Shown: piece by piece, positions 25,906 through 59,980 of the stretch
How the letters are laid out: the number at the start of each line of letters is the position of its first letter
How positions within the stretch are numbered: the stretch's first letter is position 1
DNA from: Verrucomicrobiota bacterium
Lineage (GTDB): Bacteria; Verrucomicrobiota; Verrucomicrobiia; Limisphaerales; CANJSG01
Assembly: GCA_038209745.1 (NCBI GenBank)
Contig: JBBQXJ010000017.1
Span: 1 to 62,613 of the forward strand
DNA: 62,613 nucleotides
Reading direction: 5' to 3'
The notes under the pieces: generated by a model
What the model saw: only the letters and a program-made list of their open reading frames with translations
What the model was told of the DNA's origin: nothing
Database searches by the model: none
Made by a program: the position numbers and the translations under genes

Positions 25906-28287
25906 CTACTGCGTTTCGATGCGGTAGAAGCGGGTCGCCATGCCCATCGCGACCGGATCTTCCACCGCGACCGAACGGGCCGCCGGTGTGGGATCCAAAA
26001 CTATCAACTGCTGCCACAAGCCGGTGGCCAGGGAATCCCGATACTGGATGAAGTAGCCTTGGTTGGCCGCGGCGGTGAACTGGATCTGGATCGTGTTCGA
26101 TGTCGTGAGCGACGCCGTTGCGATGAGCGGCGAACCCGCGACGGTCCAGGTCGACGAGCGGGTGAGAACCGCGGCGTCACCGAGGAGCGGATCGTCCTGA
26201 TAGAGCCCGGAATCGCGCTTGCCGCTGACTTCCACGTGATGGGCGCCTGGAGCCAGATTCGTCAGGGTGATCGGTGTGGCGACGGGGGTTTCCCCGCTCC
26301 AGTCGCCGCCATCGAGGCGCCACTTGTAGGCGGTGTAGCCGGAGCCGTCGGGCCAGTCGTTCGACGGAATGCCGCTGCCGGTGCGGTTCAAGCCGACCAC
26401 CAGGGTGGCTTCGGTCGCCATGGTGGCTCCGGGTTCACCGGAGATGGAGGAGCCCATGGGAACCACGCCGCCGATGTCCTGGCCGTTGGGTCCGGCGCCG
26501 AGGGCGGGCGAGCCGGGCAGGAGGCTGAACCAATCCCAAAGGATCTGCGCCTCGGCCCAGTTGGTGAAGTAGGTGTCCGCGAGCTGGGGGATGTGTTTCA
26601 ACATCGGATCCGCGGCGGAGTTGCCACCGCCTGGACCGGTCCAGGGGAGCGAGGTCAGGTTGTTCGTGAAGGTGACCCGCGCGGTGGTCACGTTGCGGGT
26701 GAGCGCCTCGACGTCGTAGAGGACGTTCCCTTCGAGGTAGCAGCCGGCGCCCTGGGTCGTGCCGTCGTCCGCCAGAATGACGACCGCACCCGCGGTGTCG
26801 ACGCCTCCCTGGTGGGTCTGGTGGACGACGGTGTTGTTGATCATCGTGTAGAAATTGCCCTGCTTCGCGTCGGCCGCTTCATCGCAGTCGTAGAAGAGGT
26901 TCCCGATCATGGTGATGTCGGAAACGCTGCTGCCGTCGCTGCCGCCGCTGACGCCGCTGGACGAATCCGGAGTGCCCGCGTTCTTGTGGAAGTGCAGGAA
27001 GATGTTGCCCTCGACCCACGCGTCCGTCCCGTCGATGTCGAACCCGTCGTCGTCGCTGCCGACCAGGACGTTCTCGAGGAAATGGACGATGGGTCCCGGA
27101 CGTTTGCCACCGGTGAAGTCCACCACGTCGCTGTAGCCCCTCGCTTTGCCGAAGAAATTCCGCACGAAGATCCCGTGGCCGTCGCTCCGGATGCCGCCCG
27201 CACCGTGCACTGGTTCGAAGGAGGCCGTGCCCGGAGGAAAGTGGCAGTGACTGATGACGAAGGACGCATCGTCCACGTGGATGTAGGGCGCGCCGGCATT
27301 GAGGAAAACGAGGGAATCAAGGACGACGCTGCCGGCCGACACCTGGATGCACGGTGTGCCGGTGGAGTTGGCGTTGAACTCAAATCGCGCGTGGGTGATC
27401 CGTGACTCGGGGGAACCAATGCCGCCATTGATCGTCACGTTGCCCCAATTGCCGCTCGCGCCGGAGCGGGTGAAGACGATCGGGGCGTTGGTCGTGCCTT
27501 CGGCCAGCAGAATCCCACCGTTGGCGACCGTCAGGTTCACGCCGGCGCCGAGCTCGACAGTGACGCCCGGCTCGATGACGAGCGTCTCGCCGTTGGCGAC
27601 GGTCACGCTGGCGGTCAGGACGATTGGACTGTTGGTGGCGGACCAGTGGTTCGTGACCGGCGGTGGCGGCACGTCGTAGTAGAGGTCGGACACGAGGAGG
27701 CAGTCGCTGCTGCTGGCGCTCTGGTTGATCGCCATGATCGCCAGCGTATGCGTTCCTGGAACGGCCAGCGCGCTTGCCAGCCCGAGGTCGGCGATCGTGG
27801 CGGGCTGCGGGGAGCTGTTGCCGAGCGACGATTCACGGCTGCCGCTCGCGGTGGCGTTGCTCGCGGGCTGTGCCGGCGCTCCGGGGGAGTTCACGCTGCC
27901 GAGATAGACCCCGTCCAGCCAGACGATGTAGCCGTCGTCCCAGTCCATCTTGAGGAACAGATGCGCGTCCGCCGGAAGCGCGGCGGCGACGGTGAACTGC
28001 TTCCTCAGGTAAAACGTGGTGTAGCCGCCTGCCATGTCGGAGAGGACGGTCTGGAGATTGGCCCTTTCCGGTGCGTTGTCGGCATAGCCGAATCCGCCGT
28101 TGCCCGTGAGCCAGCCGGTGCCCAGCGCCGCGTCGGCGGTGGTCTTCCAGTCGGTCTGTGGTGCGCTGGTTCCTTTCCGGTAGCGCCAAGCGTCCCCGTG
28201 TTGGAGCAAGGGCACGGGTGCGGCGAAGGTGGCGGTTGCGAAGGCCGCAAAGATGAGGGCGGCGCCGGAAAGGAAACGTCTGGGCAC
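25906..28287 (-). CDS. Large secreted protein: N-terminal galactose-binding-like domain, right-handed beta-helix region, C-terminal RFYR domain
   Basis: Signal peptide; WRYRKG...GGFGY...YLRKQF; TLVIEPGVTV...GTTNAPIVFT; DDGFDIDGTDAWVEGNIF; ends TRFYRIETQ. Confidence 0.85.
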   Translation of the reverse strand: MPRRFLSGAALIFAAFATATFAAPVPLLQHGDAWRYRKGTSAPQTDWKTTADAALGTGWLTGNGGFGYADNAPERANLQTVLSDMAGGYTTFYLRKQFTVAAALPADAHLFLKMDWDDGYIVWLDGVYLGSVNSPGAPAQPASNATASGSRESSLGNSSPQPATIADLGLASALAVPGTHTLAIMAINQSASSSDCLLVSDLYYDVPPPPVTNHWSATNSPIVLTASVTVANGETLVIEPGVTVELGAGVNLTVANGGILLAEGTTNAPIVFTRSGASGNWGNVTINGGIGSPESRITHARFEFNANSTGTPCIQVSAGSVVLDSLVFLNAGAPYIHVDDASFVISHCHFPPGTASFEPVHGAGGIRSDGHGIFVRNFFGKARGYSDVVDFTGGKRPGPIVHFLENVLVGSDDDGFDIDGTDAWVEGNIFLHFHKNAGTPDSSSGVSGGSDGSSVSDITMIGNLFYDCDEAADAKQGNFYTMINNTVVHQTHQGGVDTAGAVVILADDGTTQGAGCYLEGNVLYDVEALTRNVTTARVTFTNNLTSLPWTGPGGGNSAADPMLKHIPQLADTYFTNWAEAQILWDWFSLLPGSPALGAGPNGQDIGGVVPMGSSISGEPGATMATEATLVVGLNRTGSGIPSNDWPDGSGYTAYKWRLDGGDWSGETPVATPITLTNLAPGAHHVEVSGKRDSGLYQDDPLLGDAAVLTRSSTWTVAGSPLIATASLTTSNTIQIQFTAAANQGYFIQYRDSLATGLWQQLIVLDPTPAARSVAVEDPVAMGMATRFYRIETQ

Positions 28288-28545
28288 GAGTCATTTTTAG
28301 ACCAACGCGGCGATTGGGCGCAATCGCACAGGTCGATGCCGGGTCAATGGGTCGGGTGGCACGAGATGGATCCCGTCAGCCGGTAAAGTTCGGACAATCG
28401 GGGCGAATGGTCGGTCCCGGGCAGGGAAGCACGAAGGGGAGATTTGGCTTCCCGAGGCATTGTTGTTCGGATAACACGCCGCACCGATTTTTGCCCCCTC
28501 TTGGGCAGTTTGATCGCGTCCATAAACTTGTCCCTAGATCCGCCC

Positions 28546-29913
28546 ATGCTCCTTCCAGCCAAACGCCGCCGTCTTGGTCTTCCCGCCGCGCTTCTGTGCA
28601 CGCTCGCCTTGGCGGCCCAGGCGCAGGCCCCCGTTTCGGCCCCGAAGATCGACTCCGGCGACAACGCCTGGATGCTCGCGAGCACCGCGCTGGTGCTGCT
28701 GATGACCGCGCCCGGTCTCGCCCTGTTCTACGGCGGCCTCGTCCGCACCAAGAACGTGCTCGCGACGATGATGCAGAGCTTCTTCCTCATCTCGATGGTC
28801 AGCCTGCTGTGGTTTGTCTTCGGCTACGGCGTGGCCTTCGGCGAGGGCGGCGCGTTCTTCGGCAATCCCCTCCCGCATCTCTTCCTGCGCGGTGTGGGGG
28901 CGGCGCCGGATCCGGACTACGCGGCCACGATTCCGGCGCAGACCTTCATGCTCTACCAGATGATGTTCGCGATCATCACGCCGGCGTTGATCACCGGCGC
29001 GTTCGCGGAGCGGATGAAATTCAGCGCCTTCGTCGCGCTGATGACCGGCTGGGTGGTGATCGTCTATTTCCCGCTCACCCACATGGTCTGGGGCAAGGGT
29101 GGCCTCTTCAACTGGGCGCTCGGCGGCACCGTCCCGGTGCTGGATTTCGCGGGAGGGACGGTCGTCCACATCAGCTCCGGTGCGGCCGCTCTGGTCTGTG
29201 CGCTGGTGCTCGGGCCGCGGCGTGGATTCCCGCGCGAGCCGATGCTGCCGCACAATGTCGTCATGAGCCTCATCGGCACCGGGTTGCTCTGGGTCGGGTG
29301 GTTCGGCTTCAACGCCGGCAGCGCCCTGTCCAGCGGAGCGTTGGCGACGAGCGCCTTCGCAGCCACCCACTTCGCCGGAGCGGCGGGCGGGTTCGCCTGG
29401 TGTTTGGTGGAGTGGATGGAAAAGGGCAAGCCGAGCGTGCTGGGCGTGGCGTCCGGCATGGTGGCGGGTCTCGCGACGATCACCCCGGCTTCGGGCTTCG
29501 TCAGCGTCCCGTCTGCCGTCCTCATCGGCCTGTGCGGCGGAACCTGCTGCTACTTCGCGGTCACGAAGCTGAAGGCGAAGTTCCACTACGACGATTCGCT
29601 CGATGTGTTCGGCGTCCACTGTTGCGGCAGCATCGTCGGCATGCTGCTGCTCGGCTTCCTCGCCAGCGCGGAAGTGAATCCCCTGATCGGAAACACCTTT
29701 CGGGAGAACGGCGCGGTCGTCTCGCTCGCCGGCGGCGGCGCGCAGTTTGGCCGTCAATGCCTCGGTGTCGTTTTCACCTTTGTGTTCAGCGTCTGCGTCA
29801 CCTACGTCCTGTTGAAGATCATCGGCGCCACCCTCGGCCTGCGGGTGGAGGCCGAGGCCGAACGCTCCGGACTCGATGTCAGCCAACACGGCGAAAGCGC
29901 CTACAACGAATAG
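28546..29913 (+). CDS. amtB: Ammonium transporter
   Basis: PGLALFYGGLVR, QMMFAIITPALI.GAFAER, DFAGGTVVH, GWFGFNAGS, DDSLDVFGVH, GLDVSQHGE.AY. Confidence 0.97.
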   Translation: MLLPAKRRRLGLPAALLCTLALAAQAQAPVSAPKIDSGDNAWMLASTALVLLMTAPGLALFYGGLVRTKNVLATMMQSFFLISMVSLLWFVFGYGVAFGEGGAFFGNPLPHLFLRGVGAAPDPDYAATIPAQTFMLYQMMFAIITPALITGAFAERMKFSAFVALMTGWVVIVYFPLTHMVWGKGGLFNWALGGTVPVLDFAGGTVVHISSGAAALVCALVLGPRRGFPREPMLPHNVVMSLIGTGLLWVGWFGFNAGSALSSGALATSAFAATHFAGAAGGFAWCLVEWMEKGKPSVLGVASGMVAGLATITPASGFVSVPSAVLIGLCGGTCCYFAVTKLKAKFHYDDSLDVFGVHCCGSIVGMLLLGFLASAEVNPLIGNTFRENGAVVSLAGGGAQFGRQCLGVVFTFVFSVCVTYVLLKIIGATLGLRVEAEAERSGLDVSQHGESAYNE

Positions 29914-52240: not shown

Positions 52241-52295
52241 TCGGCTGACCGGGGTGAATGAATCTGGTATCGGTGATCTGGTCCTGAAAGTTTTC

Positions 52296-52321
52296 TGAAA
52301 CTCCGGGGTCTCGGCCGTGTC
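52296..52321 (+). promoter_or_regulatory. Putative autoregulatory ECF promoter
   Basis: TGAAAC-N16-TGTC, 38 bp before the ECF start; resembles the SigW-type TGAAAC-N16-CGTA. Confidence 0.45.
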
Positions 52322-52359
52322 CTTGCCACATCGGTGCGACCCCAACGGTCCACGCCACA

Positions 52360-52917
52360 ATGCCTGAATTGGAACAGTTTGAGACGTTCATGTTGAACTA
52401 CCAGAACATGGTGTTCACGCATGCGTTCCGACTGCTCGGCAACCCGGCCGAGGCATCGGACGTGTCCCAGACCGTCTTCCTGAAAGCCTACGAACGCTTC
52501 GCCGAGCTCGCGGACAGTCCGACGGTCGGCGGCTGGCTCAAGAGGGTGGCGACGAACCTGTGCCTGAACCATCTGCAGCGCTACCGGGCGCGGTGGCGGC
52601 TTTTCTCCGAGATGACGACCGGAGACGACGAGGATGATCGGCAGCCCGATCCCGCCGCCGAAGCGCCGTCGCCGGGGACGTTGGGCGACGATGAAAAGCG
52701 GCTCCTGGAAGAAGCGCTGAGGCGCCTGCCCGACAGCCAACGGGTGCCGTTGGTCCTGCACCATTTCGAGGACCTGAGCTGCGAACAGATCGCCGCCGAA
52801 CTCAACGTGAGCGTCGGCAAGGTGAAGACCGACATGCACCGCGGCCGGCTCGCGTTGCGAAGGAAGCTGCTGCGAAACGAAGCCGGAGAATTGTCCGCCC
52901 TGAGAACTGGAGCCTGA
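52360..52917 (+). CDS. ECF sigma-70 factor
   Basis: DVSQTVFLKAY, WLKRVATNLCLN, EQIAAELNVSVGKVKTDMHRGR. Confidence 0.93.
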   Translation: MPELEQFETFMLNYQNMVFTHAFRLLGNPAEASDVSQTVFLKAYERFAELADSPTVGGWLKRVATNLCLNHLQRYRARWRLFSEMTTGDDEDDRQPDPAAEAPSPGTLGDDEKRLLEEALRRLPDSQRVPLVLHHFEDLSCEQIAAELNVSVGKVKTDMHRGRLALRRKLLRNEAGELSALRTGA

Positions 52918-57148: not shown

Positions 57149-59980
57149 TCAGGGCAGCACGGCGCGGAAATATCGCTCCGGCTGGCCGGCGCTCCCGGGA
57201 TCGACCACCGTCTGGAGGCTGCCCTGCATGAGAACATTGGAAAATGTCTGCCACGGGGTCGCCGACTGGAGGTCCATCTTCGACTCGAGGGTCAACGGCT
57301 TGCCAGCCGGACCGGCGATCTGGAGCTGGAGAGCATCTCCGCTCCTGGTGCCGGAGAAGACGGCGACGGCTGCGTTGGTGGAGGTGAGGCTGCCACCGGA
57401 ACTGCTGACGACGACGCGATAGCTGGCGCCGCTGGTGAAGGTGATCGGGCCCAACAAAAGATTGGACGCGGTGGCCCCCGGGATTTCGACGCCGTTCCTC
57501 TGCCATTGAAACAACACCGGACCGGAAGCCGTCGCGGAGACGGAAAGGATCAGGGACTGGCCCGGGGCGGTGATCGCGGAAAGGGGATGGGCAACAATGG
57601 TGGGAGCGGGAGGCGGCGCGATGAACTGGAAGAGTGTCCCGAGGTTCGCCTCTCCCCCGGCGAAGGTGGTGCCGAAAACGCTGTCCCCGCCCACGGCCAG
57701 TCCCGCGACGGGAAGCCGGCCTTCACCGGGCACGCCGAAGTGGTAGAGCGAGGTGAAGCCGGAGCCATCCTTCGCCAATCGATAGAGCGTTCCGACACTG
57801 AAAGACCCGCCTGCCGACATGGCGCCGTAGAGCAGCCCGTCCGCTCCTTCGACCAGGCGTCCCACGGGCTGATAGCCCTGAGTGGCCGCATTGGTGATCG
57901 AAAGGAGGACTGTGTAGCCGGAGTTGGAGGGATCGTAGCGGAAGACCGTTCCGAAACCGCTGGCGCCGCCGACGCGGGTCACTCCGTAGAGCCGGCCGTC
58001 GGAGGCTTTGAGCAGCCCGCCGGAAGGATCGAGCCCGTCGGTGGCGGTGGCACCGAAATGGTGGAGGACCTGATAGCCTTCGCCGAACATGCCGACGCGG
58101 AAGATCACGCCCCAGTCGCTTGATCCTCCATACGGAGCAACTCCGTAGAGGAACCCTTGGGATTCGGCGACACCGTTCCGCGGGCCGGCGCCATCCGTGG
58201 CATTGCTGACGAAGTCATGGATCGGCAGGAACTCGTTCCCGTCCCGGGTCAGGCGGAACACCATGCCGGTCGAGCTTCCGCCCCCGAGCCGGGTCGTGCC
58301 GTAGAGCGCGCCGTCGCTGCCCAGCAGCAGCGACCCCGAGGACTGGCGGCCGTCGCCCGGCAAGGAGGTGAAGCTTCGCAGGATCTGGAAGCCCGTTCCG
58401 TTGGTGCCTATGCGGTAGACGCCACCAAAGTTGTTGGCCCCGCCGAAGAGGGCTGTTCCGTAGAGAGAGCCGTCGAGTCCGTCGATCAGGGGGCCGGCTG
58501 GGTTCAGAAGATTGGTCGCACCGGGACCGAAGTTGCGGAGCACGGTGTAGTTCGTTCCTGTTCGGTGGATGCGATACACGGTGCCGCCACCATCGCTCCC
58601 ACCGTCCCGCGTGACTCCGAAGAGGTCGCCGCCCGGCTGCGCCAACACGGTTTGGTCGAGGGTAAAGCCGTCGCCGCCGGCGGAGCTGAATCCGAACAAG
58701 GTGGCCGAGTTGTCGCCGTCCCGGTTGAGCCGGACCAAGGCGCCGTCTCCGGACAAGCCACCGCGAACGGTGACTCCAAAGAGGGCATTGGTGATCTCGA
58801 TGAGGCCGGCCCGCGGTTCGATTCCGTCGCCGGAAAACGCCCCGAAGTGTTTGACGACCGAGTAGTCTCCGGTGGTTCGGTTCAATTTGAAGACGGTTCC
58901 GCTATTGCCGTTCGTGCCCCCTTCGGGTGTGACGCCGTAGAGGAGGCCGTCCGAGGCTTCGAGCAGCTCCGAGCCCGGATACTTGGCGTCGTCGAACAGG
59001 GCGAAGTGCCGGATGATCGAGAATCCGCCGCCGGTTCGGCCGAGGCGAAAAACGGTTCCGACGTCATTGGTTCCGCCATAGCGACTGACCCCGTAGAGGA
59101 GTCCATCGGTCTTGCTGACGATCACGCCGCCCTCGATCAATTCTGGGCTCCCGGGGTTGAACGACGGGGACAAAAGGACTTTGAAGACGCTTCCGTTGGT
59201 GTTGATCCGGTAGACGGTCCCGACTTCGTTGCTCCCCCCGGAGTAGGTCGTGCCATAGAGGAATCCTTCCAGATTCGGTCCCTCGACGAGCGCCGAGTTC
59301 GGGGTGTCGCCGTCGTTTTCTCCCCCGTGAAAGTGGCGGATGACGGAGAAGTTGGATCCGTCGCGAGAGAGCCGGAACACGGTTCCAAGTCCGAAACTTC
59401 CGCCTTGGGTTGTGGTGCCATAAAGAAACCCGTTGAACGACTCGACCAGCCCGGCTTTCGGATAGGTGCCGTCGCCGAACGAGGTTCCGAAGCTCTTCAA
59501 AAGAGTGTAGTCCAGGCCATCCTTTGAAACTTTGTAGAGGGTTCCAAGGCCGCGGGCGCCTCCCGAAAAAGTGGTGCCGTAGAGGAACCCGTCTTTGCCC
59601 TCGATCAATCCCGCGTAGGGTGTGGCTCCGCTGTTGGTGAAGGACAGCTGCTTGAGGATCGACAGATCCTTCCCGTCGCGGCCGATCCGGAAGATCGTGC
59701 CGAATCCGTTGCTTCCGCCAAACGGCGTCGTCCCATAGAGAAACCCGTCAGATCCCGATAGTAGACGCCCTTGGGGCTGTGCTCCGGAGAACGCGGTCAC
59801 TCCGAACGACCGGAGTTGAATGAGGGTGGTCTGGGCATGCAGGGAGAAAAGCGGAAACAGGCAAACCAGCAGGCATACCCCTTTCTTTACAAAGCCCTTC
59901 ACGACACTCGGCAGGCCCGAAAACGACGCGGACGGTGGAAACATCCCCATCAGAGTTTCGGAATTTTCCGTAGCTGTCAA
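57149..59980 (-). CDS. GloVer tandem-repeat (choice-of-anchor) secreted protein with an Ig-like domain and a C-terminal RYFR domain
   Basis: 14 repeats of G..P...L....DG.LYG.T..GG....G.VF; Ig-like PLS...LSVSA...FQWQRNG...YRVVVS; true start probably downstream of 59980. Confidence 0.88.
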   Translation of the reverse strand: MTATENSETLMGMFPPSASFSGLPSVVKGFVKKGVCLLVCLFPLFSLHAQTTLIQLRSFGVTAFSGAQPQGRLLSGSDGFLYGTTPFGGSNGFGTIFRIGRDGKDLSILKQLSFTNSGATPYAGLIEGKDGFLYGTTFSGGARGLGTLYKVSKDGLDYTLLKSFGTSFGDGTYPKAGLVESFNGFLYGTTTQGGSFGLGTVFRLSRDGSNFSVIRHFHGGENDGDTPNSALVEGPNLEGFLYGTTYSGGSNEVGTVYRINTNGSVFKVLLSPSFNPGSPELIEGGVIVSKTDGLLYGVSRYGGTNDVGTVFRLGRTGGGFSIIRHFALFDDAKYPGSELLEASDGLLYGVTPEGGTNGNSGTVFKLNRTTGDYSVVKHFGAFSGDGIEPRAGLIEITNALFGVTVRGGLSGDGALVRLNRDGDNSATLFGFSSAGGDGFTLDQTVLAQPGGDLFGVTRDGGSDGGGTVYRIHRTGTNYTVLRNFGPGATNLLNPAGPLIDGLDGSLYGTALFGGANNFGGVYRIGTNGTGFQILRSFTSLPGDGRQSSGSLLLGSDGALYGTTRLGGGSSTGMVFRLTRDGNEFLPIHDFVSNATDGAGPRNGVAESQGFLYGVAPYGGSSDWGVIFRVGMFGEGYQVLHHFGATATDGLDPSGGLLKASDGRLYGVTRVGGASGFGTVFRYDPSNSGYTVLLSITNAATQGYQPVGRLVEGADGLLYGAMSAGGSFSVGTLYRLAKDGSGFTSLYHFGVPGEGRLPVAGLAVGGDSVFGTTFAGGEANLGTLFQFIAPPPAPTIVAHPLSAITAPGQSLILSVSATASGPVLFQWQRNGVEIPGATASNLLLGPITFTSGASYRVVVSSSGGSLTSTNAAVAVFSGTRSGDALQLQIAGPAGKPLTLESKMDLQSATPWQTFSNVLMQGSLQTVVDPGSAGQPERYFRAVLP

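Follow-up and report, generated by a model that had tools for sequence, protein, structure and literature searches.

A C-terminal domain family on exported proteins of Verrucomicrobiota, with a predicted FN3-like fold and a possible docking role

The window analysed here, a stretch of 62,613 nucleotides from contig JBBQXJ010000017.1 of a Verrucomicrobiota bacterium (assembly GCA_038209745.1), carries on its minus strand two genes whose products end in related tails, named here the RFYR domain. The first gene (25906-28287, minus strand) encodes a protein of 793 residues with a signal-peptide-like N-terminus, an unassigned passenger with a weak beta-helix signal, and an RFYR tail made up of its last 72 residues (25909..26124, minus strand), which end in ...ATRFYRIETQ ahead of the stop codon at 25906-25908. 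The second gene (57149-59980, minus strand; 943 residues counted from TTG) encodes a GloVer repeat protein composed of a signal peptide, 14 GloVer stretches, an Ig_3-like domain (residues 793-859), and an RFYR tail, again of 72 residues (57152..57367, minus strand), which ends in ...PERYFRAVLP ahead of the stop codon at 57149-57151. The original prediction, made from the letters of the window, held that the two proteins share a C-terminal domain acting as an export or surface-anchoring signal; both genes are present as it described them, and the C-terminal strings that it quoted are exact.

The second protein was correctly recognised as a GloVer protein, matching TIGR03803 with an E-value of 1.1e-154 and 502 bits (cut-off 44) in 14 stretches. 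Its database copy, P0274, is 100% identical and has 933 residues, so that the ATG at 59950 is the likely start of the gene. The description of the first protein as a beta-helix protein stands only as a weak signal, with a match to Pfam Beta_helix at E 0.03 and 14.4 bits, under the cut-off of 25.9, and no match at E <= 0.01 in a search of PDB sequences. Its orthologues P0153 and P0154 are 97% and 83% identical to it over the tail, and the precomputed Pfam label PF28492.1 was found on these two only.

Compared directly by BLASTP, the two tails align with 18.1 bits (E 0.006, 6/15 identities), a pairwise likeness that, taken alone, appears marginal and is not convincing. Their relationship was assessed across the genome, which comprises 4,578,594 bases in 140 contigs (the window being contig C17), has a GC content of 63%, and is rated 92% complete. 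A jackhmmer search started from tail 1, that of the first protein, and run over the C-terminal 100 residues of each of 16,736 stop-to-stop open reading frames (ORFs) collected 75 tails at E <= 0.01, including tail 2, that of the GloVer protein, at 5.2e-13. A profile of the 65 other tails of the genome, from which both window tails had been left out, gave 40.4 bits for the first tail and 43.2 bits for the GloVer tail, against 10.6 bits for the best of 1000 shuffles. On the strength of this family evidence, the likeness of the two tails is not due to chance, and the shared C-terminal domain of the original prediction is upheld. A contrary result came from jackhmmer started from tail 2 on full ORFs, which converged after 2 hits. 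With the family hidden Markov model (HMM), the domain envelope reaches to 2 residues from the ORF end in both proteins (independent E-values of 9.2e-17 for the first and 3.3e-11 for the GloVer protein). Both tails belong to a very large family, as yet uncatalogued, of domains of about 65-75 residues.

In the alignment of 67 tails from the genome, designated A1, the sequences share 9-32% identity with tail 1, and conservation reaches at least 90% at one tryptophan and at the second arginine of the RFYR motif. Between the [FY][FY]R strand and the chain end lie 4-5 residues in 41/65 genome tails and 78/113 public tails, and the final residue is proline in 37/67 and 44/115, respectively.

The family profile, 64 positions long, detected 78 domains in 76 full-length ORFs of the genome. 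Sixty-seven of these 78 matches end no more than 10 residues from the stop, most of them at 1-5 residues, and an unbiased jackhmmer search on full ORFs placed 52/60 matches at the terminus. The same holds for public proteins: in the less biased set of 121 proteins, all with the domain, the last copy lies within 10 residues of the end in 115, and 103 of the 107 single-copy proteins carry it terminally. Among the matches listed in a search of clustered proteins (150, biased to multi-copy proteins), the last copy lies within 10 residues of the end in 117/149, and there are proteins with up to tens of tandem copies. A locus search with P0160 matched only the PKD part of the query (residues ~50-220) and is uninformative on the location of the tail.

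The proposal of a strictly C-terminal position thus describes the great majority of proteins, but N-terminal, internal, and tandem copies occur. In three proteins (loci L082-L084) the RFYR domain follows directly after the signal peptide, namely, those of 1942 residues (C26:33254-39082), 591 residues (C8:70573-72348), and 746 residues (C31:44437-46677). The largest of them contains Big_5 and TSP3 repeats after the N-terminal domain, and no Pfam or NCBIfam family was found in the other two. Internal copies are present in two proteins, on contigs C21 and C11, and a 5028-residue protein on C61 ends in two tandem copies. A domain scan of the proteins with N-terminal or internal copies revealed no known anchor or barrel.

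By a crude rule, and with seven proteins cut at contig ends left out, signal-peptide-like N-termini were called in 50/60 tail proteins, compared with 554/1980 control ORFs (28%), in agreement with the predicted export of the carriers. A lipobox-like motif is present in just 2/53 tail proteins. In the 25 residues upstream of the domain, no special linker and no cleavage motif were seen.

The passengers are as diverse as had been proposed. Pfam families were assigned to 47/67 of them and include CotH with lamin-tail domains (LTD), LamG, Ig, TIG, DUF11, and CARDB; three S8 subtilases, an M10 and an M12B peptidase, cyclophilin, and BspA-type leucine-rich repeats; an ice-binding-like domain, PAP2, GSDH, GH16, CBM6, and a C-type lectin; and NHL, RCC1, FG-GAP, and DUF5122 propellers. 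Of 222 pairs of proteins whose tails are alike at a BLASTP E-value below 1e-3, 192 have no passenger similarity. Therefore, the module has been combined with unrelated proteins.

The GloVer proteins, designated "choice-of-anchor" in NCBIfam, allow the position of the tail to be compared with that of known modules. Among the best 120 homologues of the window GloVer protein, which make up this census, an RFYR tail stands at the end of 74 according to the HMM and of about 11 more by eye. Three others (P0340, P0362, and P0390) end in the type A domain of type IX secretion systems (T9SS), TIGR04183, above its cut-off; in two the last domain is PxKF (NF038114, with the short name "rightmost" in NCBIfam), and one has SLH (precomputed PF00395). 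One homologue has a hydrophobic, basic end, and several stop right after the repeats. Since GloVer homologues carry known sorting or anchoring domains at the same position, the RFYR tail occupies the slot of such domains.

AlphaFold2, supplied with A1, yielded a model with six strands (predicted local distance difference test score 93.9, predicted template modelling score 0.78), and the RFYR tail is confidently predicted to be a six-strand beta-sandwich resembling fibronectin type III (FN3) domains. A Foldseek search against PDB found nothing at E <= 0.001, and its weak top rows are FN3 domains. With VIA-align (48,161 chains), the best Z is 7.4, a value below 8 that possibly reflects a common arrangement only; nearly all of the 50 rows are FN3 domains, superimposed at a root-mean-square deviation of 2.0-2.8 A over 63-72 residues, among them the Fn3 module of CtXyl5A, Fn3 from Pel3, and 3mpc, an Fn3-like protein. 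Where the tail is aligned to single-domain FN3 chains (89-96 residues), the aligned range stops at residue 70-77. Therefore, the tail seems to correspond to strands A-F, and the last FN3 strand (G) seems to have no counterpart in it, judging from the aligned ranges rather than from coordinates. What was found is thus a predicted FN3-like fold combined with a strong terminal bias, rather than a known Ig or carbohydrate-binding module (CBM) fold lacking positional bias.

At the level of sequence, the family profile searched against PDB matched CBM32/discoidin domains best (E 5.6e-5, colinear over 55-62 residues), followed by FN3con (E 0.003) and the Fn3-like 3mpc (E 0.0043). Scans of the 67 tails at E <= 1 detected no Pfam family on more than two tails and no NCBIfam family on more than one; Pfam fn3 (PF00041) matched none of them, and F5_F8_type_C_2 matched two, with a best E-value of 0.051. 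Neighbours in the ESM Atlas (score 0.91-0.92) are clusters of hypothetical proteins of about 70 residues, commonest in Verrucomicrobiota and without any Pfam 38.1 family label. Precomputed Pfam labels on public homologues included no accession common to all, PF28321.1 being present on 5/120 (P0158, P0159, P0161, P0180, and P0182). Neither Pfam-A nor NCBIfam 20.0 has a model for the RFYR domain, and none is among the Pfam 38.1 labels that the ESM Atlas shows. A full-text literature search, whose coverage excludes subscription-only papers, found no description of it.

A profile search of clustered proteins returned 97,477 representatives at E <= 0.001, a count that includes cross-hits, since some of the listed proteins are ordinary FN3 or discoidin arrays; 4911 representatives were found at E <= 1e-10. 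In the phylum of the window, 124/301 genomes have a match at E <= 1e-5, and the pattern by family is patchy (f4 19/21, f25 9/9, f5 9/26, f26 3/15, f20 0/48, f27 0/21). The phylum of a metagenome-assembled genome (MAG) titled Bacteroidota gave 1-2 weak matches in each of 5/121 genomes, and that of a MAG titled Cellvibrionales gave matches in 0/121. These tallies and the source names of the homologues are consistent with the description of the domain as verrucomicrobial. In the 7.2 Mb of genome G303, which holds locus L091 and is of the same phylum, at least 148 RFYR matches reach E <= 1e-5, over twice as many as in the genome of the window. G303 had been considered as an out-of-phylum case, its title naming a Candidatus Acidoferrum MAG; this was dropped, as its phylum sample is identical to that of the window. 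The same contigs and coordinates occur in both phylum samples, and the taxonomy used therefore places G303 in the phylum of the window, at odds with its title.

The translocon or peptidase that had been expected to accompany the tail was not found, either with the T9SS model or in the neighbourhoods of the tail genes. TIGR04183 gave 0 matches from 8 candidates in the whole genome; the model works, since it scores P0340, P0362, and P0390 above the cut-off. SprA_N (PF14349) had 0 matches in the genome, 92% complete as it is, and likewise in 0/14 control genomes, so this search is not a validated one. Clustering by BLASTP of the genes within 6 kb on either side of the 67 tail genes produced the largest group from histidine kinases (10 ORFs near 7 tail genes). 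Prepilin-like proteins are encoded near 4 tail genes and extracytoplasmic function (ECF) sigma factors near 5 of the 67; the latter could regulate exported proteins or could merely represent a common family. Other neighbours are PSCyt/PSD1, DUF1501, AcrB, and ABC transporters. Verru_Chthon cassette A (TIGR02600) was dropped as a candidate partner, having only a 21-bit N-terminal match, below the cut-off. The genome has 6 secretin genes. One secretin locus, on C11, lies ~4.5 kb from the gene with an internal RFYR copy and was likewise rejected as linked: this locus is a PilM-secretin pilus cluster, separated from that gene by thioredoxin-like and unassigned genes, and no link between the two was seen.

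In the window itself, a 489-residue ORF (28444-29913, plus strand) adjoins the first gene and appears by eye to encode a multi-pass membrane transporter that may be of the ammonium-transporter type, and an ECF-type sigma-70 factor (Sigma70_r2 / r4_2) is encoded at 52288-52917 on the plus strand. Elsewhere in the genome, three exosortase genes were identified (C34:13433-14221, C20:3878-4606, and C69:3108-3854), and among 92 candidates at least 6 are PEP-CTERM proteins, encoded by genes other than the tail genes. Therefore, a second, smaller sorting system exists alongside. One of the PEP-CTERM genes has its end at C21:33363, and a tail-bearing gene (L017) begins four bases further on.

Among known systems, the T9SS type A C-terminal domain of Bacteroidota (TIGR04183 / PF18962 Por_Secre_tail) resembles the RFYR tail in many respects: it is a beta-sandwich of about 70 residues at the extreme C-terminus of proteins with signal peptides, has very diverse passengers and tens of copies per genome, is restricted to a single phylum, and occupies the same slot in GloVer homologues. 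However, 0/67 RFYR tails match TIGR04183 or PF18962 at E <= 1, the genome has no match to TIGR04183, and the RFYR domain also occurs in N-terminal (three proteins), internal (two), and tandem (one) positions. To our knowledge, such placements do not occur for T9SS C-terminal domains or PEP-CTERM. No T9SS C-terminal domain is among the 50 VIA-align rows, which is no evidence against a likeness of fold. Compared with PEP-CTERM (TIGR02595), RFYR tails end in a beta-strand followed by 4-5 polar residues or proline and have no hydrophobic helix.

FN3 domains, including Pel3 Fn3 and CbsA FnIII, provide the best structural matches, with Z up to 7.4, and the remote profile matches to FN3con and 3mpc point the same way; unlike them, the RFYR tail is shorter, with six modelled strands, seems to have no counterpart of the last of the seven FN3 strands, and matches Pfam fn3 in 0/67 cases. 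We know of no terminal bias among ordinary FN3 domains. The discoidin/CBM32 domains of Paenibacillus glucanase/chitosanase (DD1/DD2; 4zxe, 2rv9, and 2rva), the best PDB profile match, share colinear "Y-x-(I/L)-Q-x-S-x-D...W" and "RF(V/Y)R(V/L)" strands with the tail. However, these chains have 136-138 residues against 65-75 in the RFYR tail, the RFYR profile covers only their middle part (~56-118) and stops about 19 residues before the chain end, and the structural matches favour FN3.

The PxKF "rightmost" domain is an alternative to the RFYR tail in GloVer proteins, and both of its matches lie near or at the C-terminus; neither PxKF nor dockerin is among the Pfam and NCBIfam matches of the 67 tails. 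Dockerins are modules of about 70 residues, mostly C-terminal, which occur on many unrelated secreted enzymes and dock onto a scaffold; they are calcium-binding and helical, not beta-sandwiches. We know of no cohesin-like receptor for the RFYR domain. As a separate observation, curious given the dockerin-like logic of the tail, a 1672-residue tail protein (L038, C18:20731-25749) contains a match to Cohesin (PF00963, E 8.4e-9) at residues 1468-1563 of its passenger, just before the tail.

The terminal bias, the export signals, the diversity and shuffling of passengers, the equivalence of slots in GloVer homologues, and the restriction to one phylum together speak for a common role, dependent on position, in the placement of exported proteins. 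This much of the proposed export or surface-anchoring signal is retained, namely, a modular, terminal domain on carriers with signal peptides in the position of an anchor; the N-terminal, internal, and tandem copies and the lack of any machinery in the searches described speak against the rest. The RFYR tail is not a membrane anchor, since it has no hydrophobic segment, and it is probably not a linear cleavable tag. Our preferred reading, held tentatively and at a little under an even chance, is that the RFYR domain is a folded docking or address module with a shared partner. A folded docking module fits better than a strict terminal signal because N-terminal and tandem copies are tolerated and because neither a cleavage motif nor a hydrophobic anchor is present. 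One could instead suppose that the tail is a true signal for translocation across the outer membrane, the cargo tag of a dedicated and hitherto unrecognised pathway of secretion or attachment in this phylum, similar to T9SS, with possible sortase-like removal of the tail. The extreme C-terminal position, the signal peptides, the tens of cargo proteins per genome, the replacement of T9SS type A domains by the tail in GloVer homologues, the patchiness of the phylum restriction by family (19/21 in f4 and 9/9 in f25, 0/48 in f20 and 0/21 in f27), and a genome without any match to TIGR04183 would all suit such a pathway. However, N-terminal, internal, and tandem copies, a region upstream of the tail with neither a distinct linker nor a cleavage motif, a neighbour search that gave no conserved neighbour or machine, and tails only 9-32% identical to tail 1, with no signal-like motif beyond the positions of the fold, make it unlikely. 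A variant that we regard as equally improbable would make RFYR the cargo tag of an undiscovered, phylum-specific outer-membrane sorting or attachment pathway functionally analogous to the T9SS, in which the F strand, the one bearing RFYR, would lie at an open sheet edge, since the FN3 G strand seems to be missing, and would be read by a partner through strand addition; the tandem arrays would then be scaffolds or substrates made of the same module.

A third possibility is an ordinary structural or binding beta-sandwich, such as a spacer, a stabilising cap, or a CBM-like glycan binder, which has no common partner and is terminal because small accessory domains usually join at the ends of proteins. 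The family profile does cross-hit common FN3 and discoidin arrays, its best PDB sequence matches are to CBM32/discoidin (E 5.6e-5 over 55 residues) and then to FN3con, tandem arrays reach tens of copies, and the conserved residues resemble determinants of the fold. We nevertheless consider this explanation rather doubtful: the Ig_3 and I-set domains of the same proteins are internal, whereas the RFYR domain is terminal in 86-95% of cases, the chain end falls within a narrow window past the RFYR strand, most passengers are not carbohydrate-active enzymes, and the tail stands in the anchor slot of a "choice-of-anchor" family. The domain could also be an FN3 domain that assists export by general pathways (Sec/SecB or type II secretion systems, T2SS) and is possibly removed after secretion. 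Precedents for the participation of FN3 domains in export are provided by Xanthomonas CbsA, whose C-terminal FnIII domain is reported to be needed for interaction with SecB and for efficient export and to be absent from the secreted form (PMC9190976), and by Pel3, in which several distant flexible loop regions are reported to act jointly as a composite T2SS secretion signal, with section headings that name "loop 3 of Fn3" as the key one (PMC7949064). The structural matches include 4u49, a structure of Pel3 (Z 6.8, aligned over chain residues 25-93), and the genome has the secretin genes mentioned above. However, the likeness to Pel3 is one of fold, tied with dozens of other FN3 domains, and the only secretin locus near a domain-bearing gene is the PilM-secretin pilus cluster with no visible link. 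T2SS-type machinery is widespread, whereas the distribution of the tail is almost limited to one phylum, and an export-assisting role of this kind is very unlikely.

Under the preferred reading of a folded docking module, bacteria of this phylum would attach the RFYR domain to Sec-exported proteins with unrelated passengers, nearly always as the last domain. Following export by Sec, the folded domain would be recognised at the outer membrane or on the cell surface by a single partner common to the carriers; this might be a receptor, a glycan of the surface, or part of a secretion machine. Such recognition would bring the passenger to the surface or keep it there. Both the binding of a shared partner and the surface location of the tail proteins are what we infer from the pattern as a whole. 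Several observations weigh against this reading: the best-conserved positions (the tryptophan, the second arginine, and the aromatic pair) follow a pattern shared with FN3 and discoidin cores and may serve to maintain the fold rather than to form a binding surface; 20/67 passengers have no Pfam family, so that their location cannot be judged; and the neighbours of the 67 tail genes belong to generic families only, with no dedicated partner among them.

It is poorly understood how Verrucomicrobiota get their numerous large enzymes and adhesins through, or onto, the outer membrane. Here, about 67 exported proteins of one genome bear one and the same tail domain as a label, and at least 148 matches occur in a second genome of the phylum; with such copy numbers, the tail is therefore a direct experimental handle. 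A curated RFYR model alone would annotate very many "hypothetical" C-termini, and the RFYR tail gives an annotation rule with which to predict the surface or secreted proteome of a phylum abundant in soil and water.

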